Part shown: positions 47,338 through 62,809 of the stretch, piece by piece
Position numbering within the stretch: the stretch's first letter is position 1
Layout: each line of letters starts with the position of its first letter
From: Promethearchaeota archaeon
GTDB lineage: Archaea > Asgardarchaeota > Lokiarchaeia > Sigyniarchaeales > SOKP01
Length of the DNA stretch: 64,000 nt
Assembly (NCBI GenBank): GCA_048937405.1
Contig: JBHLNF010000001.1
Span: 624,785-688,784, forward strand
Direction: 5' to 3'
Notes under the pieces: model-generated
Databases searched by the model: none
The model's input: only the letters and a program-made list of their open reading frames with translations
Told to the model about the DNA's origin: nothing
Position numbers and translations under genes: made by a program

Positions 47338-48351
47338 TTATACTAGATTATTAATTATTATTTCAGAAATATCTCCAGAGTATTCAGCAGTTCTTCTTAT
47401 ACTTTCAATAATATATCCTATCGCCATTGATATTTGTACATTTCCATTTGTATTAAGGCCTATTTTTTCAGTGATTGAGATTAAATTTTTTATATCTTCA
47501 ATATTTTCATTTGCTAAACTAATACTTTTTTGAAGCCAAGCATCTAAGCTTTTATTCAATAAATTAAGAGATAATTTACTTACTTCTTTTAGTTCTTCCT
47601 TTAAATCATCATCAATTTTATGTTTTAAAAGAACCAAAACATTTTTAGCTATCTTTGAGGCATGATCCCCAATTCTTTCGAGGAATCTACTCATTTGTTG
47701 ATAATGACTCGCTTGTTCTAAAGTAATCCCCATCTTTTGGCAAAGAATTATGTCTCTCAATACAATATGAGATTGACGACCAATTAACCAATGTAGTCTG
47801 TCAACATCATTGTCTCTTTTAATGACTTCTTCAGCTAATTCACTTTTTCCGTTATCTAGAGCATTTATCGAATCCTCATGCATACCTTGTACAAGTATAT
47901 ACATCCTTTTTATCGTTTTTTCAAAAGGCATTTCTTTAGGATTAAGTAAATCTTTAATCACTATGTAATTATTAGATTCTTCAACAATTTCTGGACCTAT
48001 CGCAATTTGAGTAAAATTTGTAATAGTATCTCTTAGTAAAGGGTCAAATTTCTTACTCGATTTAATAATAATTCTGGAAAAACCCATTATATAAGCGCCT
48101 ATTAAAACTCGAAATAAAAAATTTTCATCATTATAATCATCGACAATTATTTCTTTTGTCTTGATTCCTTTTTCATTATCAATCTTAGGAGTTATCAACA
48201 AATTACCGTCCGGTTGTGAAAGGATTCCTAATGTATCATTTTTTTCTACACCATGCTTATCAATCCAAACCTTCGGCAAACTTATTATGTAAGAGCTTCC
48301 TCCAGTTTTTTGCACTTTTCTTGTTTCAATATGAAATCCCATTGATATCAC
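47338..48351 (-). CDS. AbrB-PhoU phosphate uptake regulator
   Basis: RKVQKTGGSSYIISLPKVW, DNDVDR, ERIGDHA. Confidence 0.93.
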   Translation of the reverse strand: MISMGFHIETRKVQKTGGSSYIISLPKVWIDKHGVEKNDTLGILSQPDGNLLITPKIDNEKGIKTKEIIVDDYNDENFLFRVLIGAYIMGFSRIIIKSSKKFDPLLRDTITNFTQIAIGPEIVEESNNYIVIKDLLNPKEMPFEKTIKRMYILVQGMHEDSINALDNGKSELAEEVIKRDNDVDRLHWLIGRQSHIVLRDIILCQKMGITLEQASHYQQMSRFLERIGDHASKIAKNVLVLLKHKIDDDLKEELKEVSKLSLNLLNKSLDAWLQKSISLANENIEDIKNLISITEKIGLNTNGNVQISMAIGYIIESIRRTAEYSGDISEIIINNLV

Positions 48352-48365
48352 TATGATTTATTTTA

Positions 48366-48650
48366 TCTATATAGAATAAAAAATTTCATTATTAACTCAA
48401 TTTGGTTATATAGAATAAATAATTGAATTATTTTATACTTAAACTATATAATATATATATTTTCTATATTCTATATATATAACAATACTACATTAGTTAA
48501 AAAATTTTACAATAGAGGATAATTATTTCAATATCCTCCCTATAGTATTTTATCTTTATTAAAAGACAATAATGATTATTAACCTGACAATAATATTTAA
48601 TTGCCTTTATAATGATAAATAAAATCTATCTCTATAGAATATATAGAGTA
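48366..48650. promoter_or_regulatory. Cluster of CTATATAG-like elements in the divergent regulator/pstS promoter (candidate PHO box)
   Basis: TCTATATAGA at 48366-48375; TATATAGAATAAA at 48368 and 48407; variants near 48444, 48462-48478 and 48631-48648. Confidence 0.55.
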
Positions 48651-48747
48651 AATAACTCAACATATACTATATCGAGATTCCTTATATTGAATAGGCAAAT
48701 CCTCTACCTAACAAAATTTTAACAAAAACTTAAGTTTCATAATATAA

Positions 48748-49869
48748 GTGTTTATAATGCGAGAACGAACAATAATATACGTTTTAGGTATTGCCTTAGT
48801 TGGAACGATTATCGGATTTGGTGTTGGAATGTTTGTTCTAACTTCACCAGAGACACCAATTAGACTTAGTGGAGCAGGTGCTACTTTCCCAGCGCCATTA
48901 TATCAAAAATGGTCTGAAGAATTTGATACTCTCACAGGAATTCAAGTGGATTATGAGGGCATTGGTAGTGGTGGAGGGATTCAGCAACATACTGCAAAAA
49001 CAGTAGATTTTGGTGCTTCAGATCCTCCAATGAAGACATCTGAATGGACAGCTGCGTCGAATACTTTACAATTACCCATGACAATAGGAGGAATTTTAGT
49101 TGCTTATAATCTTCCAGGAATAACAGAACCTCTTAAGTTAACTGGAGATATAATCGCCCAAATATTTGCAACTAGTATAACTACATGGGACGATGCCAGC
49201 TTGAAAGCTTTAAATCCTGGAGTTATTTTACCAACTCATTCAATAACTGTTGTTCACAGATCAGATTCAAGTGGATCTACAGCTGTATTTACCAGCTTTT
49301 TATCCGATGAGAGCACAATGTGGAATTCTACATATGGGGCTTCTAAAACCATTGATTGGGATCCTGATACTTTGGGTCAAAAAGGAAATTCTGGTATTGC
49401 GGCATATCTTCAAGGTAATGAATATTCACTGGGTTATATTGAATTAGCATACGCGATTGAAAGTGGTCTTGATTATGCTTTAGTTCAAAATAGAGGTGGA
49501 ATTTATTCATTAGCTAATACTACATCAATAGCACAAGCCGCAGCTTATGCTTCTCTTTCTTTACCTGCTGGTAATGAAAATTGGGAACCTGTTGGAAGCT
49601 ATTTTAAAACTGGTCCAGGATGTGGAGATGCTTATCCTATTTCTTCATTCTCTTATATGCTAGTTTATAAGGAACTGAATGTAATTCCCGGTATGACATT
49701 AAAAAAAGCAAAGGCTTTAACAAATTGGTTATGGTGGTGTACTCATCAAGCTCAATCCTACGCGGAAGGATTACACTATGTTGAAATTCCTGCTCCGGTA
49801 ATAGCGATAAATGAAGTGAGTTTACGTTCTATAACATATGATGGGGAAATCGTAAATACATGGACATAA
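48748..49869 (+). CDS. pstS: Phosphate ABC transporter substrate-binding protein
   Basis: GAGATFPAPLY, GSGGG, DFGASD, HRSDSSGST, YPI. Confidence 0.96.
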   Translation: MFIMRERTIIYVLGIALVGTIIGFGVGMFVLTSPETPIRLSGAGATFPAPLYQKWSEEFDTLTGIQVDYEGIGSGGGIQQHTAKTVDFGASDPPMKTSEWTAASNTLQLPMTIGGILVAYNLPGITEPLKLTGDIIAQIFATSITTWDDASLKALNPGVILPTHSITVVHRSDSSGSTAVFTSFLSDESTMWNSTYGASKTIDWDPDTLGQKGNSGIAAYLQGNEYSLGYIELAYAIESGLDYALVQNRGGIYSLANTTSIAQAAAYASLSLPAGNENWEPVGSYFKTGPGCGDAYPISSFSYMLVYKELNVIPGMTLKKAKALTNWLWWCTHQAQSYAEGLHYVEIPAPVIAINEVSLRSITYDGEIVNTWT

Positions 49870-49958
49870 TATTAAATTACTAATTTAACAATATTTTTTT
49901 TTAAATTTTATTTTGAAAATTAAAAGATATAATTATAATTTAATGGTATTAACACCCA

Positions 49959-50969
49959 ATGAACGAACAATTATCCATAATTCCTAAAAATAATCAAAAA
50001 AATAAAAAAAAAAAATTCATTTTAGAAAGAAAAATTGGTATAGATTCAATTTTTAAATCATTTTTAGGGATCATATCTTTTTTAATATTTATAATAATTG
50101 GATTAATGATTCTAATTCTATTTTTGAGTTCTTATCTTTCAATCAAAACTTATGGATTTGAATTTCTTTGGGGAACTGAGTGGAACCCAACTCCAGCAGA
50201 TCCTAATACTCCCCCTGTATTTGGAATTTTACCTCCGATATTAGGAACACTAGTTACTTCTTTAATTGCAATTCTTATAAGTTTTCCTATAAGCATAGGG
50301 ATAGCATTAACTCTCTCTGAATTCACTTCAAAAAGATTTAACTTTTGGGTTTCATTTCTAGTAGAACTATTAGCAGCTATACCAAGTGTAATTTATGGAC
50401 TTTGGGGTATATTTACTCTTATACCATTTTTAAATCAAAATGTATATCCTGTCATTCAAAATACATTTGGTTTTCTCCCTTTTTTTCGAGGTGCAACTCA
50501 TGGATATAACGTTTTAACGGGTGGAATTATCCTAGCAATTATGATAATTCCTACTATCACTGCTATTTCTCGAGATATATTTGCGGCAGTTCCAACAAGT
50601 CAAAAAGAAGCGATTATAGCATTAGGTGCAACAAAATGGGAATCAACAAAAATTATTAGGAAATATGGACGATCAGGCGTGATAGGAGCGGTAATATTAG
50701 GACTTGGTAGAGCAATAGGAGAAACAATGGCTGTAACAATGGTTATTGGAAACTCATTTAATCTAATTAACTCTTTATTTGATCCTACTTACACTTTAGC
50801 ATCATTAGTAGCTAATGAATTTACGGAGGCTAGTTCTCCGAAAGTTTATCTTTCAGCTTTAATTGAGGTAGGATTTGTATTATTAATACTGGCTTTAATT
50901 GTTAATATTGCTGCAAGATTAATAATACGATATTCTATAAGGAAATTCAAAGGAGTGGAGACGTTTTAA
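49959..50969 (+). CDS. pstC: Phosphate ABC permease
   Basis: ELLAAIPSVIYGLWG, ALGATKWE, GRAIGETMAVTMVIGN. Confidence 0.96.
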   Translation: MNEQLSIIPKNNQKNKKKKFILERKIGIDSIFKSFLGIISFLIFIIIGLMILILFLSSYLSIKTYGFEFLWGTEWNPTPADPNTPPVFGILPPILGTLVTSLIAILISFPISIGIALTLSEFTSKRFNFWVSFLVELLAAIPSVIYGLWGIFTLIPFLNQNVYPVIQNTFGFLPFFRGATHGYNVLTGGIILAIMIIPTITAISRDIFAAVPTSQKEAIIALGATKWESTKIIRKYGRSGVIGAVILGLGRAIGETMAVTMVIGNSFNLINSLFDPTYTLASLVANEFTEASSPKVYLSALIEVGFVLLILALIVNIAARLIIRYSIRKFKGVETF

Positions 50970-50970
50970 A

Positions 50971-51819
50971 ATGGCTTTTTCAGAAGAAAAAAGGTTTAAA
51001 ATCAGAAAATTCAAGAATTATTTAATGATATCACTCTGTTTTTTAGCTCTAATTCTTGGTTTAATACCTTTAATTAGTATTTTATATGAAGTTATTATAA
51101 ATGGAATTGGTCAAATGAGTATTGGTTTTTTAACTCAAGAAATCTCACCATTAGGACAGGCAGGAGGAGGAATTGGCCCTGCTATTCAAGGAACATTAAT
51201 AGTAATTTTGCTAGCATGTTTATTTGGAATACCTATTGGTATTTTTTCTGGAATTTTTTTAGCAGAATATCCCTATAGTAAAATTAGTTTTGCTGCTGGT
51301 TTTTTAAATGATGTCTTATCTAACATGCCTTCAATTGTTATCGGTATTTTTACTTGGATATTGATTGTAAGTCTTACAGGATGGTCAGTTTTAGCAGGTG
51401 GTTTTGCTTTAGGGATAATGATGATTCCTTTAATAACACGAGCAACAGAAGAATCTATTAAAATAGTACCTTCTACGATTCGAGAAGCTGCTCTAGCGTT
51501 AGGAATCGCTCAATGGAAGACAACCTTAACTATAACTGTTCCAACAGCAAAAAAAGGGATAGTTACGGGGATATTACTTGCAATTGCTAGAGTTGCTGGA
51601 GAAACAGCTCCTTTGTTGTTAACTATACTTGGAAGTAGATTCTTTTTCGCTAATTTTTTTGAACCAACAGCAGCGCTTCCCTTAACAATTTTTAACTCAT
51701 CACAATCTCCATTCGTGAGTATAGATTGGCCAAAAGCATGGGGTGCGTCGCTATTTTTAATATTTATGGTTCTTTTACTAAATATCATGGTTAGATTTTT
51801 GACAAGAGAAAAATATTAG
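50971..51819 (+). CDS. pstA: Phosphate ABC permease
   Basis: PSIVIG, REAALALG, ARVAGETAPL. Confidence 0.96.
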   Translation: MAFSEEKRFKIRKFKNYLMISLCFLALILGLIPLISILYEVIINGIGQMSIGFLTQEISPLGQAGGGIGPAIQGTLIVILLACLFGIPIGIFSGIFLAEYPYSKISFAAGFLNDVLSNMPSIVIGIFTWILIVSLTGWSVLAGGFALGIMMIPLITRATEESIKIVPSTIREAALALGIAQWKTTLTITVPTAKKGIVTGILLAIARVAGETAPLLLTILGSRFFFANFFEPTAALPLTIFNSSQSPFVSIDWPKAWGASLFLIFMVLLLNIMVRFLTREKY

Positions 51820-51831
51820 ATGTGATGAATT

Positions 51832-52602
51832 TTGATTAAATTACAAATTGAAAATTTAAATGTATCGTTTAGTGATAAACGGGTTTTAAGTAACATTAAT
51901 TTGAATATTGAAAAAAACCATATTACTGCAATTATTGGTCCATCGGGATGCGGTAAAACAACCTTACTTAGAAGTATGAATAGAATGCATGATCTAATAC
52001 CTGATGCGAAAGTAACTGGCAACATTTCAATGGACAATTATAATATATATGGTAATAACAATAAAAATAGATCAATCGATTCTGTTTTAGTTAGGAGGAA
52101 AATAGGAATGGTTTTTCAAAAACCAAATCCGTTTCCAACTATGTCGATATTTAACAATGTTATTGTTGGTCTTAAATTAAAGGGTATAAGAGAAAGAGAA
52201 AAATTGGAAATGATGGTTGAAAAATATTTAAAATTAACACATTTATGGGATGAAGTTAAGGATGATTTAGAAAAATCTGGAGCGAGTCTTTCTGGTGGTC
52301 AACAACAGAGATTGTGCATAGCTAGAGCATTAGCAGTCGAACCTGAGATAATTTTAATGGATGAACCATGTTCAGCTTTAGATCCAATTGCTACTGGGAA
52401 AATTGAAGAACTAATACTTGAATTGAAGAAAGAATGGACTGTTGTAATTGTAACCCATAATATGCAACAAGCAGCAAGAATTAGTGATTTTACAGGTTTT
52501 ATGTATTTAGGAGAATTAATTGAATTTGGGGAAACTACTCAAATATTTGAGAATCCAAAAGAAGAATTAACTGAAAATTATATAACTGGAAGATTTGGTT
52601 AG
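51832..52602 (+). CDS. pstB: Phosphate ABC ATPase
   Basis: [41 protein letters not shown]. Confidence 0.97.
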
Positions 52603-52612
52603 GTGAATTTTA

Positions 52613-53266
52613 ATGGCAAAAGAATTACATAGAGAAATTTTTGAATTAAAAAAAGAAATTCTTGATATGGGTAATTTAGCTTTAGGAATGTTAGATGATT
52701 CAATGAAGGCTTTATCTACTCAAAATATAGAATTAGCTAAAACTACTGTGGAAAAGAAATATAAGATTAGAGAATTTGATGCAGATATAGAGTCAAATGC
52801 ATTAAAATTAATAGCCCTTTATCAACCAATGGCTATAGATCTCAGAAGATTAGCAACAATATTAAAAATGATTACTTATCTAGCAAGGATAGGGAGATAT
52901 GGTAAAGATATTGCATCAGTTGTGGAGGAAATTTCAAAAAAACAACCTTATCCTTCCCCATTTGTAAATTTACAGCATATGTGGGAACATACAAAACTAA
53001 TGATTGAAGATGCACTTAAAGCTTTTGATGAGGCGGATATTAAATACATCGAGAAATTTGAGGAAAGGGATAATGAAATTGATAAAATGAGATGGTCAAT
53101 ATTCAGAGAATGTTTAACATACATGATGGAAGATCCTAAAACAATAACATCTTGTGCCTTTTTTGGTATGATTGCACGATTTTTAGAAAGGAGTGCTGAT
53201 CATGCATGTAAAATTGCTGAGAAAGTTCATTACATGGTAACTGGAGAACATAAAGAGATTTCTTAA
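52613..53266 (+). CDS. phoU: Phosphate signalling protein PhoU
   Basis: QPMAIDLR, RIG, ER.ADHA..IAE.V.Y.VTG; directly after pstB. Confidence 0.95.
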   Translation: MAKELHREIFELKKEILDMGNLALGMLDDSMKALSTQNIELAKTTVEKKYKIREFDADIESNALKLIALYQPMAIDLRRLATILKMITYLARIGRYGKDIASVVEEISKKQPYPSPFVNLQHMWEHTKLMIEDALKAFDEADIKYIEKFEERDNEIDKMRWSIFRECLTYMMEDPKTITSCAFFGMIARFLERSADHACKIAEKVHYMVTGEHKEIS

Positions 53267-53407
53267 TTTTTTTTCCCTATAATTAATAAAATCCAGACTA
53301 ATATAAAATTACACCATAAATTTTTCTTATATTTTTTAGGAATTAATTTAATAAATTATAGTTAAGTAATAAGAATAAAAGTTATTTAAATAACCAATCA
53401 GATTATA

Positions 53408-54028
53408 ATGGACACATATAATCATTTACCTGATGTTCAAATTAAACCTATTGGACAAATATCGAAAAAATTTATAGATCTTGGAATTAAATCATTTAGA
53501 GAAGCTTGTGATTTTGTCCATAATATTGAATATGGATATAATACAGATTATGAAGATAAAATGATTTTGTTTAAAGAAAATATGGGAACTTGTACAACTA
53601 AACATGCAATAATTGCAGGTTTGGCTGAAGAACTTGACATACCTCTATATAAGCATGTAGGCGTCTATAAATTCACTGAAGAAACCTCTACTGGTACCCA
53701 AGAAATCTTAAAAAAATATAATATTCCTTATGTTCCAATGGTTCATTGCTTTTTAGTATATAAAAATTACCGATTTGATTTAACAGAAGGTAATTGTAAC
53801 GGAAAAAATACCACTCTCGAAGAATTTATATACGAACAAAAAGTTAATCCCTTCATCAGCAGAAAAGATGAATACTTACTATTTAAAAGGGTATTAAAAG
53901 AAAGAATTCTGTCATCAAAAGAAATGGATGGAATTAATGAACGATCTATATTAAAAGCGAGAGAAGAATCTATTAATCTTATAAAAAAAAATTCAAAAAG
54001 ACAAAAATTAAATAGAATTAATTTGTAA
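53408..54028 (+). CDS. Hypothetical protein, transglutaminase/papain-like Cys-His-Asp fold
   Basis: GTCTTKH, HCFL, RFD. Confidence 0.6.
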   Translation: MDTYNHLPDVQIKPIGQISKKFIDLGIKSFREACDFVHNIEYGYNTDYEDKMILFKENMGTCTTKHAIIAGLAEELDIPLYKHVGVYKFTEETSTGTQEILKKYNIPYVPMVHCFLVYKNYRFDLTEGNCNGKNTTLEEFIYEQKVNPFISRKDEYLLFKRVLKERILSSKEMDGINERSILKAREESINLIKKNSKRQKLNRINL

Positions 54029-54092
54029 TTATAAATCTTTTAGGAAACTCTATCAAGTATACAATAATTCTGATAAAATAAAATTATAATTT

Positions 54093-54785
54093 TTAAATTC
54101 CTTCTACACTGGTTAATAATACCATTATATAATCCGCAACACCTTCTATCGAATCAGAAATTGCTTCAAGAATATCAAAAATATTTCCTACCGTAAAAAT
54201 TGTAAAAAAATTCACATCATATTTAGTTTCTTGAAGACTTCTTCGGAGCTTAATGTTCAATAGGTCAACCTTATGTTCATTTTGATTAATTTGTCTAGCA
54301 ATCTCTTTAACTTGCTTCCTTTCTTCTACCAAATCAATTACTATCTTATCTAGATATTTAGCACAATCAACTGTAGTCTTCATTATTTCAATAATTAGAT
54401 TAATAGTTTCTTCACTACTCTGATCCCAAAATTTTACTGGTACAGTAGCTATTCTACGGGCTACTCCATTACAACAATTGGCAACATCATCAATTCTTTT
54501 AATTAAATGCGATAAATTTTGCCTTACACTTGGATCTAATTCTCCTTTTGAAATATCTTTTTGAAGATCCCTTCTTAAGTCATCGGCTTCACCTTCTAAT
54601 TTATCAACATTATGAAAAATATCATGAGTCTTTTCGAGATCTTTTTCTTTTAGAAGCATTAATATTCCTCTATCTAACTCTTTGACACATTCTTGTACTT
54701 TTTGAGCATGCTTTATAGTCTTTTCCAAAGCATTTAAAGCAGTTTCTCTTTTCAGGTATTCAATTAAAGAACCCATAATAACCAA
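54093..54785 (-). CDS. DUF47 (PhoU-like) phosphate transport regulator
   Basis: LEGEADDLRR, IDDVA, EHKVD, E.ISD..E.VAD. Confidence 0.9.
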   Translation of the reverse strand: MVIMGSLIEYLKRETALNALEKTIKHAQKVQECVKELDRGILMLLKEKDLEKTHDIFHNVDKLEGEADDLRRDLQKDISKGELDPSVRQNLSHLIKRIDDVANCCNGVARRIATVPVKFWDQSSEETINLIIEIMKTTVDCAKYLDKIVIDLVEERKQVKEIARQINQNEHKVDLLNIKLRRSLQETKYDVNFFTIFTVGNIFDILEAISDSIEGVADYIMVLLTSVEGI

Positions 54786-54816
54786 TTTTTTATTCTCAAT
54801 TTTATTCTCTATATAA

Positions 54817-54826
54817 ACTATATAGT
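54817..54826. promoter_or_regulatory. ACTATATAGT palindrome (candidate PHO box)
   Basis: In the short spacer upstream of DUF47 gene 54093..54785. Confidence 0.5.
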
Positions 54827-54856
54827 AATATATATTTTTTACTTATTATAAATTTA

Positions 54857-55894
54857 TCAAGTTAATCCAAATGAGCTTAATCCAAAGTATATAAAACCTG
54901 CAAGTAGTGCGGCTATAGGAAACGTTAATACCCAAAAAATTGCCATCTTTCCTAAACCTTTATAATCCACCTCTTTTTTTTGGGCAATACTCATTCCAAC
55001 TATACAAAATACAATTACATGGCTATGAGAAATTGGAAGTGCAAAAAGTGTAGCAATCATTAAAATAATTGCAGAACTAATCTGGATAATAAAACCTTCA
55101 CTAGGGCGTGTATCAATCATATGGGATGCTAAATTTTTGATAACATACCGTCCTGCAATGTAAATACCGAGAAATGAAAAAATACCACAAAAAATTGCAT
55201 ATAAAATGTATTGTCCATTTGTTATAGAACTATTTTCTCTAAGACCTAGAAGAATACCTAAAGCTTCTCCTGAATTAGCTCCGACCCAAATTTCTGCAAA
55301 CAAGACAGCAATTAATAAAAACCACTTAAACATTTTTTCAGATTTCTCGATCTGATTTAAACCCTTTAAACGAGATAAGAAAACTTTAGCACATATTTTA
55401 AAGAGAATATAAGTTATTAATAATCCTGATATTGGTGAAATAAACCAACTTAAAATTACATTTGTTAATTTCTCATTATTGAAAGCGGTATTAAGATCAA
55501 TTCCTCCCTGGGAAATAGCATAAACTATTATTACCCCCACAATACTTCCAATTAACGAGTGTGTACTACTTAATGGAATCCCCGAAAAACTCCCTACCAC
55601 TAACCAGATAATACTACTTATCAATACAGTTAAGAGCATATAATTAGTATATTTTTCTTCTAAACCTTCACCTAAAATGTTTTTTCCTACGGTTTCCGGG
55701 ACAAAACCACCGCTGAAAAGAATCATACCAGAACCAACGGCAATACCCCCCACAATTAATGCTATTTTGAATTTTATAACACCAGCACCAACTAAAGAAG
55801 CGAGTGTTTCATCATTAGCGCCAATACTAAAAGCTAAACCAACAGCCATGATTATTAAAACTATAACTAAGAGTATTGTTAGTTCTTCAGCCAT
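54857..55894 (-). CDS. PiT-family inorganic phosphate (anion) transporter
   Basis: GAND, P.SSTH..G, second repeat GANS and PISHSH; W..TFP. Confidence 0.88.
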   Translation of the reverse strand: MAEELTILLVIVLIIMAVGLAFSIGANDETLASLVGAGVIKFKIALIVGGIAVGSGMILFSGGFVPETVGKNILGEGLEEKYTNYMLLTVLISSIIWLVVGSFSGIPLSSTHSLIGSIVGVIIVYAISQGGIDLNTAFNNEKLTNVILSWFISPISGLLITYILFKICAKVFLSRLKGLNQIEKSEKMFKWFLLIAVLFAEIWVGANSGEALGILLGLRENSSITNGQYILYAIFCGIFSFLGIYIAGRYVIKNLASHMIDTRPSEGFIIQISSAIILMIATLFALPISHSHVIVFCIVGMSIAQKKEVDYKGLGKMAIFWVLTFPIAALLAGFIYFGLSSFGLT

Positions 55895-55920
55895 TTTTTT
55901 TTTTCTTGTCTAGTAATTTT

Positions 55921-56583
55921 TTAGTCAAAAATAAGATATTTTGTTGCAAGAAACTGGATATATTCAGAGAAGTTTTTAATATGATCGGAGAGCATCATAA
56001 TATCTTCAATTAAATTTTTCAAATATAGGAATGTTCTTGATAAATAATCCATATCATAATTATATAAGCGATTTAGTAATTGCCATTCATCATCTCGCAT
56101 TTTTCGCCTTTCTTCTTTTATTTCTTCACATATATCATGAGCTTTACTAAGATCTGAACCAATAGATTTTACAGCTTCAGACAATTTATTTGATATAGTT
56201 TTTAATGAGTTAAGAATACGTAATATATGAGTCTTAAATTGTTTATCGGGAAAAATAGCTTTATAGAGAAGCATTCGATTTGCTAAAAATTCTTCTATAT
56301 TTTTAATATCGTTTATTTTGTTAAATAGTTTTAATCTGTCTGCTTTGGAGAACATGAGTTTTGATTTGAATATCTTTGATTCAAATTGCTTTTTTATTTG
56401 GACTTCAGTATTAGTTTCTATAACATAATTCATATTTTCCTTGAAATTGTTAAAATTTTCTTGAACAAGATATTCAATCCCTTTTATTAGTTTCATCGTT
56501 TGTTCATTTATGTTATCCATGAATAAATGAGTTAATTCATCAATACTGCGTTTCTTTAATTCCTTATCCTCAATATTCTTCAT
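55921..56583 (-). CDS. Divergent DUF47-like protein
   Basis: All-helical, same size as the neighbouring DUF47 proteins; DR..L...I.DI and LSDHI..FSEY. Confidence 0.65.
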   Translation of the reverse strand: MKNIEDKELKKRSIDELTHLFMDNINEQTMKLIKGIEYLVQENFNNFKENMNYVIETNTEVQIKKQFESKIFKSKLMFSKADRLKLFNKINDIKNIEEFLANRMLLYKAIFPDKQFKTHILRILNSLKTISNKLSEAVKSIGSDLSKAHDICEEIKEERRKMRDDEWQLLNRLYNYDMDYLSRTFLYLKNLIEDIMMLSDHIKNFSEYIQFLATKYLIFD

Positions 56584-56607
56584 TTTCTATATTATTCATT
56601 TTATATT

Positions 56608-56615
56608 CTATATAG
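56608..56615. promoter_or_regulatory. CTATATAG palindrome (candidate PHO box)
   Basis: 25 nt upstream of ATG 56583; variant ATATATAG at 56641. Confidence 0.5.
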
Positions 56616-56877
56616 TTAATATATATTCTATTAAATTTCAATATATAGCTTATTTTTATTGTTAAATTATTAATCATGAAAAATTTGTCTAATAATATGT
56701 TCAAATTTGGATTTCCTTCCTCCATTTTAAATTACAAGATTTTAATTATAGCTTCTTTAAAAAAATCATATTAATAAAATAAATAATAAAGTGGAATAGA
56801 AAACATTTTATGCATTAACAACTTCAATGAATATAAAAAAAAGAAATAATTAAAAGATAAAAAAATAGAAATTATTA

Positions 56878-57561
56878 CTAAATTTTCTTAGCTACTGTCA
56901 ACATAATAATATAATCAGCAACGTCTTCCGCATTATCACTGATAGCTTCCATAGCTGATATACAATTATAAATAACTATTGCACTAAAAGGATTTATCTC
57001 AATATTATTTGAGACTAAACTTCTACTAATTGCATAATTTTTTTCATCACACTGATGTTCTAAAATATTAACCTCTTGCCCTATCTGTTGAATTTTTTCT
57101 TCCTCTGCTTTTAAAAGTTCATTAACCATAAGATTTACTTTTTTAACAGCCTCTACTGAGATTCTTGAAATATCTAAAATATTTCTATGAATATCTTCGC
57201 CTAAACTCATAAAATCTTTATGATTCATAGAAATAAGAATTCTTGAACTAGCATTTGCGGTATTCGCAATGTCATCAATTCTTTTAACAAGGTGAATCAG
57301 ATTCTCTCGAATTTTAGATGGAAGTTCTGCTTGTGATAACATATTCAGAATATTTCTTCGAATTCCATCTGCTTGATGTTCTAATTCATCAACTCGGAAA
57401 AATACTTTTAATGCAAGATCAATGTTTTTTTCTTCAAGAAGAAATGACAAACCTTTATCAAATTCGACAATACATTCAAGTACTTTCTGAGTATGAACTA
57501 AAGTTAAATTTATTGCATTTTCTTCATTACGAGATTTGAACCATTCCATCAAGGAACTCAT
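56878..57561 (-). CDS. DUF47 (PhoU-like) phosphate transport regulator
   Basis: LEHQADGIRR, IDDIA, EHQCD, EAISDNAEDVAD. Confidence 0.92.
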   Translation of the reverse strand: MSSLMEWFKSRNEENAINLTLVHTQKVLECIVEFDKGLSFLLEEKNIDLALKVFFRVDELEHQADGIRRNILNMLSQAELPSKIRENLIHLVKRIDDIANTANASSRILISMNHKDFMSLGEDIHRNILDISRISVEAVKKVNLMVNELLKAEEEKIQQIGQEVNILEHQCDEKNYAISRSLVSNNIEINPFSAIVIYNCISAMEAISDNAEDVADYIIMLTVAKKI

Positions 57562-57604: not shown

Positions 57605-58828
57605 TTATTCTAATTTTAATACTTCTCTTATTATATCATTACTAGGATGTTCAAATATTATCCCCAATTCTTTAGGAAAATATACTGTTACCTCAGAATT
57701 CTCTAAAAATGCATTATGGATTTCATAAGTGGCTGATCTAGTAACAATAATCACTTTATCTTTATGGTCTATTTTTGTAAGGATTTCAAATCGGTAAAAT
57801 ACTCCCATAAATTTACGACGGAGTAGTGTTCCCAATATTGCATTTCTTTTTTCATTGACACGATTACCTAATCGAAGTTTCATATGGTTTGCTCGAACAA
57901 CTAATAGAACTTTATCATTATTCTGAATTTTATTATACAATGATTTTTTTAGATAACCTGCGAAAGTATTTTCAAAACCAATATCTATTGGCATTGGAAC
58001 AGATTCTTCTTGAATCTCATTGAAGAATTTATCCCCCTGCTTAGATTTACTATGAATATCCCATTCTGGCTTTATATTTTTAATACAAATTCCATCAAAA
58101 TAATTTATTTCACTCATAAAATTTGCTACAAAAAGATTAATTGGATGATAATATATCTCATTAGGACTTCCTACCTGAATAAGTTTTCCTTCATTAATTA
58201 CAGCTATTCTATCAGCCACCATCATTGCCTCTCTTTCGTCATTGGTAACATGAATTACTGTTAAACCTAGTTCTTTAGATTTTGCCATTAAAAGTAATTC
58301 TCTTCTTAAACTCATTCTAAGTCCAGCATCAAGTGCTTTTAAAGGTTCATCTAATATCAATAGTTTTGTTTGTTCTAGATTTAGCAAGGACCGACATAAT
58401 GCGACTCTCTGTTTCATTCCCCCACTTAATTCATCTGGGTATGCATCATTTCTTCTAGTTAATAAAGTCATCATTAAAACTTGTTCAACTAATGATTTGG
58501 TTATTTGGGAAGCTCTAGCATGAACTCTTCCACTATAAGAAATATTTTCAACAACATTCATATGAGGAAATAATGCATAGTTTTCAAACATAAAACCTAT
58601 ATTTCTCTCACCAGGCGATCTTTTAGTTACATCCTGCTCATCGAAAAATATTTTCCCAGAATCTGGTTTAAGAAGGCCGGCAATAAGCTTAAGTAATGTA
58701 GTTTTACCGGCACCTGTGGGACCTAAAATAATAAAGTATTCTTTATCTTTTATCTCTAGTGAAATATTTTCTAATGCCGTGAAATTTCTAAATTTTTTAA
58801 AAATATTTTTCAATTTAATATTTACCAA
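57605..58828 (-). CDS. MalK/PotA-type ABC ATPase with TOBE tail; degenerate Q-loop and H-loop
   Basis: GPTGAGKT, LSGGMKQR and LDEP are intact, but the Q-loop reads FMFENY and the H-loop reads HVTND. Confidence 0.92.
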   Translation of the reverse strand: MVNIKLKNIFKKFRNFTALENISLEIKDKEYFIILGPTGAGKTTLLKLIAGLLKPDSGKIFFDEQDVTKRSPGERNIGFMFENYALFPHMNVVENISYSGRVHARASQITKSLVEQVLMMTLLTRRNDAYPDELSGGMKQRVALCRSLLNLEQTKLLILDEPLKALDAGLRMSLRRELLLMAKSKELGLTVIHVTNDEREAMMVADRIAVINEGKLIQVGSPNEIYYHPINLFVANFMSEINYFDGICIKNIKPEWDIHSKSKQGDKFFNEIQEESVPMPIDIGFENTFAGYLKKSLYNKIQNNDKVLLVVRANHMKLRLGNRVNEKRNAILGTLLRRKFMGVFYRFEILTKIDHKDKVIIVTRSATYEIHNAFLENSEVTVYFPKELGIIFEHPSNDIIREVLKLE

Positions 58829-58839
58829 TAATTTTTCAC

Positions 58840-59985
58840 CTACGATAAAGAAAGTTCAGATAATAAATTTTTAGGGGCCTTAAATACGTGGATATCATCC
58901 TTATGAATTCCAATTATTAATTTTTTTCCTGAGATGAAGTTTTCCTCAAAATTTCCTGGTTTTATTGAAATGAATTTATCATTGTTATCTAAATTTAAAT
59001 AAAATCTTTTTGTTGCCCCAATAAATCTTGATGTTTCTAAAATACACTCAAATAATTCCATTTGAGACCAATTATATTGGCTGCTTTCAAAATCATAATC
59101 TTCAGGAAATAGATATACATCTTCAAAACGAAATGCGATTACTATATTATCATCTAAATCAAATTTATTACCAAAATTATGTGTTTTTAATTTTGGACCA
59201 CCCAAACGAATTCTAATCTCCATTTCATTATTGTCAAATAACTTTAAAACAAAACCTTGAAGAAAATTAGTTTCTCCTAAAAAATTTGCAACGAATATAC
59301 TATTTGGACTTTCATATAAATCATAGGGAGATCCCATCTGAAGTAATTTTCCTCCTCTCATAATTATAATTTTGTCGGCTATAGCCATAGCTTCTTCTTG
59401 ATTATGAGTAACATGTATAGCTGTGAGACCTAAATCTTTCACTAAATTTCTTAACTCATGACGAAAAACTTTAGATACTTTTGGATCTAAAGATCCTAAT
59501 GGCTCATCCATAATCAGAATTTTGGCACCAGTTGCTATTGCTCTTGCTATACCTAATTTTTGTAAACCTGGATTTCCAAAAATTGATGGATATTCATCAG
59601 CATATTGTAGTAAATCAACTGTTTTGAGAGCTTTTTCAGTTTCCTTAATAATATAATTATCGTTATATCCTCGCATTTCTAAACCAAATGTTACATTTTC
59701 CCATACAGTCAAATGATCAAAAATTTCAAAATGTTGAAAAATAAATCCCATATCTCTATCTTCTGGTGGGATGCCTTTAACATCTTTTCCATCAATCAAA
59801 ATTTTACCATTGGTAGGCTCTTCAAGTCCTGCAATTATTCTAAGCGTTGTGGTTTTCCCACATCCAGTAGGTCCTATCAAAAAAACATATTCCCCATGTT
59901 CAATTTTTACAGAGATATTATCAACAGCTAGGACCTTACCTTCGTTAAAAGTTTTTGTAACATTTAATAGTTCTATAGTTGGCAA
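58840..59985 (-). CDS. MalK/PotA-type ABC ATPase; degenerate signature motif
   Basis: GPTGCGKT, FIFQH, MDEP and HVTHNQ are intact, but the signature reads FGNPG. Start placed at TTG 59985 after AGAGGA. Confidence 0.92.
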   Translation of the reverse strand: MPTIELLNVTKTFNEGKVLAVDNISVKIEHGEYVFLIGPTGCGKTTTLRIIAGLEEPTNGKILIDGKDVKGIPPEDRDMGFIFQHFEIFDHLTVWENVTFGLEMRGYNDNYIIKETEKALKTVDLLQYADEYPSIFGNPGLQKLGIARAIATGAKILIMDEPLGSLDPKVSKVFRHELRNLVKDLGLTAIHVTHNQEEAMAIADKIIIMRGGKLLQMGSPYDLYESPNSIFVANFLGETNFLQGFVLKLFDNNEMEIRIRLGGPKLKTHNFGNKFDLDDNIVIAFRFEDVYLFPEDYDFESSQYNWSQMELFECILETSRFIGATKRFYLNLDNNDKFISIKPGNFEENFISGKKLIIGIHKDDIHVFKAPKNLLSELSLS

Positions 59986-59989
59986 TAGA

Positions 59990-61666
59990 TTATCCTCTTT
60001 TTTTTGATACTGTTCGTAATGCAAAAATTAAGAATGCACTAAAAATCATAATAATTACACTCGCAAATACTCCTGAGGCATAGGCATTTGCCTCAACAAA
60101 ATCTACGATAAGCACAGGAACGGTTCTTACGCCACCCATTACAACAATAGTCGCACCCGTTTCTCCTAATGAGCGAGTGAAAGTCATAATACATCCTGCA
60201 ATAATCCCTTGTTTTATGTTGGGAAGTGTAATTTTTCTAAAAACGGTCATGTTCGAGGCACCTAAAGTTCGAGCAGCTTCTTCAACTCCCTTATTTGAAG
60301 ATTCTAAAACTCCAATTATAGGACGAACCATATATGGAAATGTAAAAGCAATATGTACAAATAATATCATAAAAAATCCAGATTGAAACAAACCAAAACC
60401 TGTTGGACCCCAAAATAAAAATGTTGCAAATCCTAAAGCTGCTGAAGGAATTGCGATCGGAATATCTAAAATAGTATCTAAAATGGTGATCATTTTTCCC
60501 CACTTTCGCTTTGTAATTATAAATGCAAAAGGTATACCAAAAATTAAATTTGCAAGAACAGCTAAGGCTCCTATTTCAATTGAGTAAATAAAACTTGTAT
60601 ATAAAAAAGCCCACTTATAATCTTTTCCTAAGAAAACCTCCTCTACAATATTAGCTCCAATTATTTCTATTATAATATAAAATGCAGGTATAAGAATTAC
60701 AATAAAAAGAATTCCTAAAGCTAATAAATCTCTTAAATGTCTTAAACTCTTTTTACTTAAAAATCTTTCTATTCTAGGCCATACTGAATTAATTGGAAAT
60801 CCTGTTTTCCGAGTCAAAAATTTTATTGAAAATAATAGTAAAAGTGAAATTACAATTAAAATTCCAGCTAGTAAAGAAGCGGAGGGCAATTCTAATTGCC
60901 TTCTATAGCCCACAATCAAAATAGGGGCGGTTTCAACTAAACCCGAAAGTATAATTGTAGCACCAGTTTCACCTAAGCTTCTCGTAAATGCAAGAATAGC
61001 CCCAGCTATTAATCCTTCTTTCATCAATGGAAGTGTTATAGTTCGAAATACTGTGAATCCTGGAGCGCCTAGAGTTTGAGCAGCCTCTTCATATAGAACA
61101 GAAGTTTTTTCTAATACAATCTTCATATTTCGTACAATATATGGAAAAGTGAATACTATGTGTCCAAGCACAATCAATGTAAATCCTGGATATATTCCAA
61201 ATATTCCCCAAAATAACATTATAGAAAATCCTAAAGCACTAGTAGGTACGGCCATTGGTAAATCTACCAATGCGTCAAGTATTTTTTTACCTCTAAAATT
61301 ATATCTCGTTAATATAATTGATATGGGAAAAGCAATGATAATATCAACACCTACAGCTATAGAAGCAATTGAAAAGGAGCTTCCTAAAGCTCTCAACATA
61401 TTATGCCATTGCAAATCTCCCAACAATGGGTCGTTAAAGACATCTTTTTTTATAGCAGGAATGTTTAGAAATATAGTTGAAAAAATGTTTATTATCGGAC
61501 CTATAATAACCAAAATGAAAAAGATAATTACTATAGAATCTAAACTTTTTCTGAATATTGACTTGGAAAAGAATCTATCTAATTTTAAATTTAAAGGTAA
61601 ATTCAATTCTTCTTCAAGAGAGCCTCCTTTCAAATCTTGATTTTTCTTTTGTATTTTCTTTATCAT
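59990..61666 (-). CDS. Fused double ABC permease (CysT/W-, ModB-, FbpB-like)
   Basis: Two repeats of DLP.A.P..ALG, EEAA.TLGA and FTRSLGETGAT. Confidence 0.92.
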   Translation of the reverse strand: MIKKIQKKNQDLKGGSLEEELNLPLNLKLDRFFSKSIFRKSLDSIVIIFFILVIIGPIINIFSTIFLNIPAIKKDVFNDPLLGDLQWHNMLRALGSSFSIASIAVGVDIIIAFPISIILTRYNFRGKKILDALVDLPMAVPTSALGFSIMLFWGIFGIYPGFTLIVLGHIVFTFPYIVRNMKIVLEKTSVLYEEAAQTLGAPGFTVFRTITLPLMKEGLIAGAILAFTRSLGETGATIILSGLVETAPILIVGYRRQLELPSASLLAGILIVISLLLLFSIKFLTRKTGFPINSVWPRIERFLSKKSLRHLRDLLALGILFIVILIPAFYIIIEIIGANIVEEVFLGKDYKWAFLYTSFIYSIEIGALAVLANLIFGIPFAFIITKRKWGKMITILDTILDIPIAIPSAALGFATFLFWGPTGFGLFQSGFFMILFVHIAFTFPYMVRPIIGVLESSNKGVEEAARTLGASNMTVFRKITLPNIKQGIIAGCIMTFTRSLGETGATIVVMGGVRTVPVLIVDFVEANAYASGVFASVIIMIFSAFLIFALRTVSKKRG

Positions 61667-61684: not shown

Positions 61685-62809
61685 TTATGCTGTAGCTTTA
61701 CACAATTGCCATAAATCAGGGATTTTTATTAATACTTCTTCATCCAATGGTGTATGTAACTCAGGAACATTAAGATCATAAGTAATACCATTAGTTTCAT
61801 AATTAAATACTTCAGGATCTAATGGAATTGAAGGATTAATAGGTCTAAATCCGTATTCTAATGCAGAAATAACAGTTTCATTTTCATTTAAAAAATTAAG
61901 GAAAGCTTCTGCTACGACTCTCTGCTGATCAGTTATCCAATCCGCATTCAATATACAAAACGGATGGTCACTATATAATGTTCCTTCCTCTGGATAAACA
62001 GCAATAATTTTTCCTCCTTTAGCAGTACTGGAAATATCTCTTATTAAATTTTCATACAAGAAAGCAATATTTAAAGCAGTAGGGCCCTCATTTTCCATAT
62101 AACGCGCTAAGAAACCAGTAGAAGTTCCATACACTACAGCGCTTGATTCAAATTCTCTGAGCCATTGTTGATTAGTCAAATTTTGTAGATCAGACATTGA
62201 TAAATTCTCCGAAGAGATACCAGAAACTGCTGATAATGCCATTATCACACTCATAAATCCTGAATTTGACAAACGGGGATCAGTATGAGCCATTCTAATG
62301 TTCACATCTGGATCTAATGTCAGATCATGTACATCATTAAATCCCTTTATGTTATAGGTATTATTAAATGATTCCCAAGTAGCAATTACTATAGGAGAAT
62401 ATATTATTCTAACTGCTGCACTAATATTTACTATTGGATCTTCGCTATTTGTTAAATCTGCCCATTTAGAGTTTAAAAAAGGCATCCAAATAGAACTTGC
62501 TGGACTCCATATAGTAGGATAGATTTCTCTATTAAGAATACTAATAATTGAATTTGAAGATCCATAAGGATGCATATCAATACTGATTGGTTCATCAGGA
62601 TGGGTATTTTGCCACTCATCCATAAAATCAGAATAAGCAGCTGTCATCCAACTTGCCTTTTCAGAACTATAAATTATAGTTATATGTGTTCTTTCCCCTC
62701 TACTTTCAAGTACTAAACTAGTAGAAAATGCTCCTATTATAAATCCTATTATAAATATCGAAATAATTCCAAATTTACTATCCTTTTTAGCTTTTCGTGT
62801 ATTTTTCAT
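61685..62809 (-). CDS. Membrane-anchored ABC substrate-binding protein (SBP_bac_11-like, the type usually fused to vWA)
   Basis: N-terminal TM; YSSEK, WSPASS, SPIVIA.W, HTDP..SNSG, YENL, YP.EGT..SDHP, GFRP. Confidence 0.82.
   Translation of the reverse strand: MKNTRKAKKDSKFGIISIFIIGFIIGAFSTSLVLESRGERTHITIIYSSEKASWMTAAYSDFMDEWQNTHPDEPISIDMHPYGSSNSIISILNREIYPTIWSPASSIWMPFLNSKWADLTNSEDPIVNISAAVRIIYSPIVIATWESFNNTYNIKGFNDVHDLTLDPDVNIRMAHTDPRLSNSGFMSVIMALSAVSGISSENLSMSDLQNLTNQQWLREFESSAVVYGTSTGFLARYMENEGPTALNIAFLYENLIRDISSTAKGGKIIAVYPEEGTLYSDHPFCILNADWITDQQRVVAEAFLNFLNENETVISALEYGFRPINPSIPLDPEVFNYETNGITYDLNVPELHTPLDEEVLIKIPDLWQLCKATA

Follow-up and report, generated by a model that had tools for sequence, protein, structure and literature searches.

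An Asgard archaeal ABC importer with two non-identical ATPases whose motif deviations all fall in one composite nucleotide site

The DNA analysed here, a 64,000-nt stretch of contig JBHLNF010000001.1 of a Promethearchaeota archaeon (positions 624,785 to 688,784 of the forward strand; hereafter the window), carries a five-gene minus-strand operon. It encodes a membrane-anchored substrate-binding protein, a fused permease, two ATPases of the ATP-binding cassette (ABC) type, here called A and B, and a PhoU_div/DUF47 protein. We read this system, with a probability of about 0.82, as a type I importer in which A and B stem from one old Asgard duplication and function as an obligate A/B heterodimer that has a canonical nucleotide site (site 1) and a degenerate one (site 2). 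Coordinates below count from the first nucleotide of the window, and all motifs and genes of the operon are on the minus strand.

ATPase A (381 aa, 58840..59985) possesses an intact Walker A motif (GPTGCGKTT, 59848-59874), Q-loop (FIFQHF, 59728-59745), Walker B with D-loop (ILIMDEPLGSLD, 59485-59520) and H-loop (VTHNQ, 59398-59412). Its signature, in contrast, reads FGNPG (59566-59580). This pentapeptide stands exactly at the LSGGQ position, and the flanking sequence from YP to ARA aligns without insertion or deletion. ATPase B (407 aa, 57605..58828) has an intact LSGGM signature (58415-58429), next to a regular Walker A (GPTGAGKTT, 58697-58723) and Walker B with D-loop (LLILDEPLKALD, 58328-58363). 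It deviates in the Q-loop (FMFENY, 58577-58594), where Glu82 (codon 58583..58585) occupies the glutamine position, and in the H-loop (VTNDE, 58235-58249), where Asn196 (codon 58241..58243) occupies the histidine position. This distribution had been proposed for both subunits in a first-pass annotation made from the sequence alone, and each motif was recovered where it had been placed. Both proteins belong to the ABC ATPases, with Pfam PF00005 (ABC_tran) scores of 99.9 bits for A and 113.1 bits for B against a cut-off of 25 bits, and with Walker A, signature region, Walker B and H-loop in this order. Neither gene contains a frameshift or an internal stop.

Each ABC site is built from the Walker side of one domain and the signature of the other (PMC3971661). 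Because the sites are composite, the Walker side of A and the signature of B form a canonical site, while the Walker side of B and the signature of A bring all three deviations together. A and B would act on the fused permease as an obligate heterodimer. Site 1, consisting of the Walker A, Q-loop, Walker B and H-loop of A with the LSGGM of B, would be canonical, and its hydrolysis would drive transport. Site 2 would consist of the Walker A, the Q-loop with its glutamate, the Walker B and the H-loop with its asparagine of B, with the FGNPG of A, and would be degenerate.

The asymmetry is conserved among close relatives. Searches with A and B returned hundreds of sequences labelled Promethearchaeota, Lokiarchaeota or other Asgard names; the motif counts cover the best 120 of the hundreds of matches to each ATPase (67-100% identical) and are given over 121. 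The F-G-[NDE]-P-G core of A is near-invariant in these 121 homologues. The Q-loop of B reads FMFENYALF in 121/121, and asparagine replaces histidine in every listed variant of its H-loop (105/121 homologues). The glutamine and histidine of A and the SGG of B are retained among the close homologues, and the Walker A Lys/Thr, the Walker B Asp/Glu and the A-loop Phe/Tyr of B are retained in all of them. The ratio of non-synonymous to synonymous substitution rates (dN/dS), calculated for each ATPase gene against eight orthologues, is ~0.07-0.15 for both. No close canonical ATPase paralogue was found in the genome of the window, the next best match being at most 36% identical.

The survey was extended to 301 genomes of the phylum, including 68 of the window's family and 21 of its genus. 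Close orthologues occur in 29 of the 68 family genomes. In 29 family genomes the operon lies with both ATPases on one contig, and the A-type and B-type motifs occur together in all 29. Checking orthologous Asgard pairs, as the first-pass annotation had proposed, thus bore out its expectation: the substitutions co-occur, always in the same composite site.

The combination of a binding protein, a fused permease and two ATPases is spread across the phylum, in most cases with a DUF47 gene behind it, and the A and B genes are neighbours in all loci examined. For the comparison of the two sites, 24 A/B gene pairs from 12 family-level lineages were scored at nine catalytic positions per composite site, i.e., 216 cells for each. 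The A-type signatures are diverse: FGNPG in the window's family, GWGNGD in a sister family, and elsewhere LSAPE, LSAPD, LNTPE, LTAPQ and (D/N/G/A)AADL. About a dozen clusters at 50% identity with degenerate A-type signatures were retrieved by a profile search of 1.84 billion representatives. The A-type subunits always keep Walker A, the Q, the Walker B D-E and the H. In the B-type subunits it is the SGG that is always present, with S, G and G invariant in 24/24. At the Q-loop position of B, E is found in 21/24 and A in 3/24, the latter all from one family. The H-loop histidine is kept in 12 of the 24 and replaced by N in 11 and by Q in one, and the N and Q variants are confined to one half of the clade. 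The Walker B glutamate of B is changed to Q in two lineages and to D in one. The furthest departure is seen in family f16 (L135:3825-4970, L136:1519-2622, L137:3749-4831, L138:6063-7130 and L139:5935-6996), where the Walker A of B reads GPxGxGPS, Lys being replaced by Pro and the Ser/Thr also gone, and where the Walker B contains DQP. The LSGGM of B and the catalytic motifs of its partner stay canonical in this family, whose second site probably cannot bind ATP at all.

In phylogenetic trees, A-type and B-type sequences form separate clades, with Shimodaira-Hasegawa-like approximate likelihood ratio (SH-aLRT) values of 96-98 and 95-97, respectively, and the inner branching of the two clades is largely congruent over the 12 lineages. 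This indicates that A and B probably arose by one old duplication and co-evolved afterwards. By parsimony, site 1 has undergone no change and has 0/216 non-canonical cells. Site 2 has undergone at least 24 residue changes and has 112/216 non-canonical cells. This 24-to-0 split has a p of ~6e-8 if either site is equally likely to change, the events being not fully independent. Such one-sided relaxation is exactly what an asymmetric-pair model predicts. The pair thus has the features of a consensus/degenerate site pair, with non-identical subunits whose deviations all meet in a single composite site, the other being canonical, and it keeps these features in 121 homologues of each subunit, 29 same-contig pairs and 12 family-level lineages. 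The central claim of the first-pass annotation, that all deviations fall in one composite site, therefore holds for the window and across the phylum.

The complex of A and B with two ATP was also modelled. It reached a score of 0.78, compared with 0.00 for the best of three controls; the score mark of this test is reached by 58/80 solved complexes and by 2/110 mismatched pairs. At least 70% of the contacts are shared between the runs, and the partner has a predicted local distance difference test (pLDDT) value of at least 80. In the model, P139 and G140 in the FGNPG of A touch P37 and T38 in the Walker A of B, and the C-terminal domains are also in contact. The passing score may reflect a likeness to the solved dimers of MalK and PotA.

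In the window's family, site 2 would probably bind ATP without normal closure or hydrolysis and serve, like its counterparts in TM287/288, TAP and CFTR, as a hinge or latch. Binding of ATP is plausible because B keeps the Lys/Thr of Walker A, the Asp/Glu of Walker B and the aromatic residue of the A-loop. Degenerate sites of exporters bind ATP without turnover (PMC3971661, PMC7756269), and the ATP held there keeps the domains associated (PMC7756269). The A/B heterodimer would then have lost hydrolysis at site 2 and consume one ATP per cycle, and either homodimer, A2 or B2, would be expected to be defective, judging from the motifs.

The retained residues of B can also be read in another way. 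If the glutamate in place of Gln, the asparagine in place of His and the FGNPG were an alternative but working chemistry, both sites would be active and two ATP would be spent per cycle. The intact Walker A Lys, Walker B Asp-Glu and A-loop aromatic residue of B are compatible with such activity, the replacement residues are themselves strongly conserved, and at the active site of ABCC1 a change of His to Asn or Gln preserved transport, while Q-loop changes had little effect on hydrolysis (PMC7756269). Two observations nevertheless make this improbable. The signature of A lacks the Ser and both Gly. In ABC ATPases, the signature Ser and Gly residues contact the gamma-phosphate. Moreover, sister B lineages carry a Walker B E->Q or E->D or have lost the Walker A Lys, with site 1 unchanged throughout; such losses indicate that the family can dispense with hydrolysis at site 2. 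The strongest evidence for this dispensability comes from the lost signature of A together with the Walker B and Walker A losses of the sisters, and not from the H and Q replacements in the window. A less probable alternative, which we consider very unlikely, is that A2 and B2 are homodimeric engines used on the same permease under different conditions, or that B serves another transporter. Importer ATPases that are shared or multitask do exist in bacteria (PMC7658222). An A2 dimer would have two sites without a signature, however, and a B2 dimer two sites without Q and H. The adjacency of the A and B genes in every examined locus, their largely congruent trees and the presence of only one permease, itself a fusion of two unlike halves with an EAA motif in each, likewise speak against independent engines. 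Drift, i.e., the decay of one ATPase gene after duplication, has a negligible probability. It would account for the presence of non-canonical motifs and for nothing further. Both genes are constrained according to their dN/dS, the degenerate motifs are near-invariant among the homologues, the reading frames are undamaged, and every change is within one composite site. Random decay is excluded, as site 1 stayed unchanged and site 2 underwent at least 24 changes along several routes. The first-pass annotation had argued that random decay would not sort so cleanly, and the relatives strengthen this argument, since their B subunits are altered by other routes (Walker B E->Q/D, Walker A K->P) in the same site.

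The obligate heterodimer with a single hydrolytic site is thus preferred, although some points weigh against it. The catalytic Glu and the P-loop of B are intact and comparable changes are tolerated in ABCC1, so that slow hydrolysis could take place at site 2. The complex model cannot tell A/B from A/A or B/B and is given little weight here. The operon is also patchily distributed, being found in 9 of the 21 searched genomes of the window's genus; several same-genus genomes that are at least 92% complete have no match at E up to 1e-60. As only 9/21 genomes of the genus carry it, the operon is accessory and not essential, and its patchiness suggests an uptake system that was gained or lost.

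A broader interpretation is that the Asgard pairs represent a naturally occurring series, from which it would follow that a single ATP site is enough to drive a type I importer. The series would begin with two canonical subunits; the signature alone would be lost first, Q and H next and the Walker B Glu after that, and at its end would stand a B without the Walker A lysine. The site 2 of the window would represent a conserved, non-hydrolytic latch, and this latch or the C-terminal domains may be where the PhoU_div protein couples uptake to the phosphate status. We regard this extended scheme as a possibility on the unlikely side.

Less-derived systems are found among the relatives. In bacteria of the candidate phyla radiation (CPR), in Micrarchaeota and in one gammaproteobacterial genome, the fused permease is accompanied by one canonical ATPase. 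The pairs of the Asgard families f15 and f17 and of two Thermoproteota are canonical or mildly altered in one signature (LSRGA, MSSGE). Loci L140-L145, with a single ATPase, were left out of the comparison, as they belong to another fused-permease family (~25% identity). The same fused permease also occurs with ATPase pairs of a second, related kind, in Thermoproteota and in the Asgard families f17, f24 and f30 (L012, L013, L120, L121, L131-L134 and L148). In this kind, one subunit has a mildly altered signature (LSRGA, LSSGA, LSSGF, MSSGE or LSGGA), and its partner has canonical motifs, with YxPQ in the Q-loop. Such pairs may represent an earlier stage of the same asymmetry. Family f24 also has reading frames of 753-774 aa that are interrupted by one stop and were suspected to be fused ATPases. 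Each proved to consist of two genes in one frame with a stop codon between them; their motifs are mildly degenerate at most, and they were treated as separate genes. These in-frame genes are located at L131:5200-7476, L132:4454-6712 and L133:4970-7267, and the separating stop is TAG in 5/6 such matches and TGA in one.

The genes of the operon are tightly arranged. The substrate-binding protein (374 aa, 61685..62809; Pfam SBP_bac_11, E 3e-14) has an N-terminal membrane anchor. It is followed by the fused permease (558 aa, 59990..61666), in which BPD_transp_1 (PF00528) matches two stretches; each of the two domains contains one EAA coupling motif, located in the sequence at 61058-61087 and 60251-60280. 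The two PF00528 domains with their EAA motifs and the SBP_bac_11 gene in the same operon identify a type I binding-protein-dependent importer. ATPase A starts with a TTG codon 4 nt past the permease stop, preceded by a GAGG, and ATPase B with a TTG codon 11 nt past the stop of A. A C-terminal TOBE_2-type domain is present in A, and TOBE_2 (PF08402) is annotated in its close homologues. The final gene, beginning 43 nt after ATPase B, encodes the PhoU_div/DUF47 protein (227 aa, 56878..57561; PF01865, E 2e-23).

According to the NCBIfam models, the permease is nearest to the sulfate, molybdate and tungstate permeases CysT, ModB and WtpB. It scores barely above a broad sulfate-permease subfamily model (243.8 vs 240), and modB_ABC was also passed via its two halves. 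The ATPases fall into the PotA/CysA/MalK-like group, far under every NCBIfam equivalog cut-off; A scores 275 and B 261 with the PotA model, whose cut-off is 482. Because of these low scores, A and B are placed outside any characterised orthologous group. An identity as CysPTWA, ModABC or WtpABC was rejected, with ATPases far below the cut-offs and a binding protein without an NCBIfam match. The PotABCD polyamine importer was rejected as well, given the unmet PotA score and a binding protein that resembles PotD/F by fold only, at 12-15% identity.

The binding protein has no sequence match in the PDB at E up to 0.01 and no NCBIfam model. Its predicted structure (pLDDT 91) matches the sulfate-binding protein first (5um2/1sbp), then the sugar-phosphate binder AfuA and PotD/F, and also FbpA, at ~13% identity. 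As these fold neighbours are only family-level at such identity, no ligand can be assigned from them. Across 22 Asgard and Thermoproteota homologues, ~45 residues are invariant, among them S49-E50-K51, S181-N182, S230-T231-G232 and D281-H282-P283, and these could mark the ligand site.

The operon sits in the phosphate cluster of the window (47338-57561). This cluster comprises an AbrB-PhoU regulator, pstS-pstC-pstA-pstB-phoU, an open reading frame of 206 aa, a DUF47 gene, a PiT gene, an open reading frame of 220 aa without Pfam match, and the operon's own DUF47 gene. Four PhoU-fold genes confirmed by Pfam are thus present within 10 kb (47338-57561), and the canonical pstSCAB-phoU (48748-53266) is 5 kb from the operon. 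A DUF47 homologue also adjoins the transporter in most Asgard loci examined, as well as in a Micrarchaeota and a Korarchaeia-type locus; five loci have an AbrB-PhoU gene next to it, and two have PiT. Judging from the type of permease, the binding-protein fold and the PhoU-family genes conserved nearby, we suggest, tentatively and at somewhat less than even odds, that the cargo is a phosphorus-related tetrahedral oxyanion or a phosphorylated compound linked to phosphate homeostasis.

The number of ATP used per cycle by binding-protein-dependent importers is unsettled. For the maltose system, the results differ from those for the histidine permease. Mutagenesis of the histidine permease suggested that one site can suffice (PMC3971661). 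A naturally asymmetric type I importer allows this question to be tested without artificial mutants. The pair described here is under selection across the Asgard archaea, and its sister lineages lose even the P-loop lysine of the second site. It is, in addition, an uncharacterised uptake system that is tied to genes of phosphate homeostasis and occurs in the archaea most closely related to eukaryotes.

Degenerate sites are frequent in exporters (PMC3971661, PMC7756269). The heterodimeric exporters TM287/288, TAP1/2, MRP1/ABCC1 and CFTR have, like A/B, two non-identical domains, with the deviations in one site and the other site strictly canonical. Several substitutions known from exporters are also found here or in the sister lineages, namely Walker B E->D, loss of the H-loop His, an altered signature and loss of the Walker A Lys as in ABCG5/G8 (PMC3971661, PMC7756269). 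The Q-loop Q->E is a hallmark of the Asgard pair, absent from the exporter substitutions listed in the available parts of PMC3971661 and PMC7756269. Those exporters have a type IV or V fold, with the ATPase domains fused to the membrane part. The Asgard system, unlike them, has a binding protein, BPD_transp_1 domains and free ATPases with MalK/PotA-like C-terminal domains. The consensus/degenerate design, mostly associated with exporters, arose independently in importers.

Among importers, the best PDB matches of the ATPases (E 1e-61 to 1e-51) are PotA (8y5f, 8zx1), MalK (1q12, 2r6g) and the sulfate/molybdate ModC of Methanosarcina (3d31). They share with A and B the plan of an ABC domain followed by a C-terminal regulatory domain, but are homodimers with two identical canonical sites. 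PstSCAB-PhoU is likewise an ABC importer tied to a PhoU-family protein and a phosphate gene cluster. The Asgard permease and binding protein, however, are not of the Pst type, the partner is PhoU_div/DUF47 and not PhoU, and PstB is a homodimer. In the literature, no description was found of this family, nor of any type I importer that has its ATPases encoded separately and one of its sites degenerate, and the sole importer precedent found is that of RbsA and NupO (PMC11466899). The first-pass annotation had called one-degenerate-site logic unusual for an importer, and unusual it is, but not unprecedented. RbsA and NupO of Bacillus subtilis belong to binding-protein-dependent systems, like the Asgard one, and their sequences suggest one degenerate site, in which the second Walker A Lys is missing and the signature is altered (PMC11466899). 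Their domains are fused in one polypeptide, and they serve ribose and nucleoside importers of the type II fold (PMC11466899). The Asgard ATPases, by comparison, are encoded by separate genes, belong to the CysA/PotA/MalK-like clade and show a graded degeneration.

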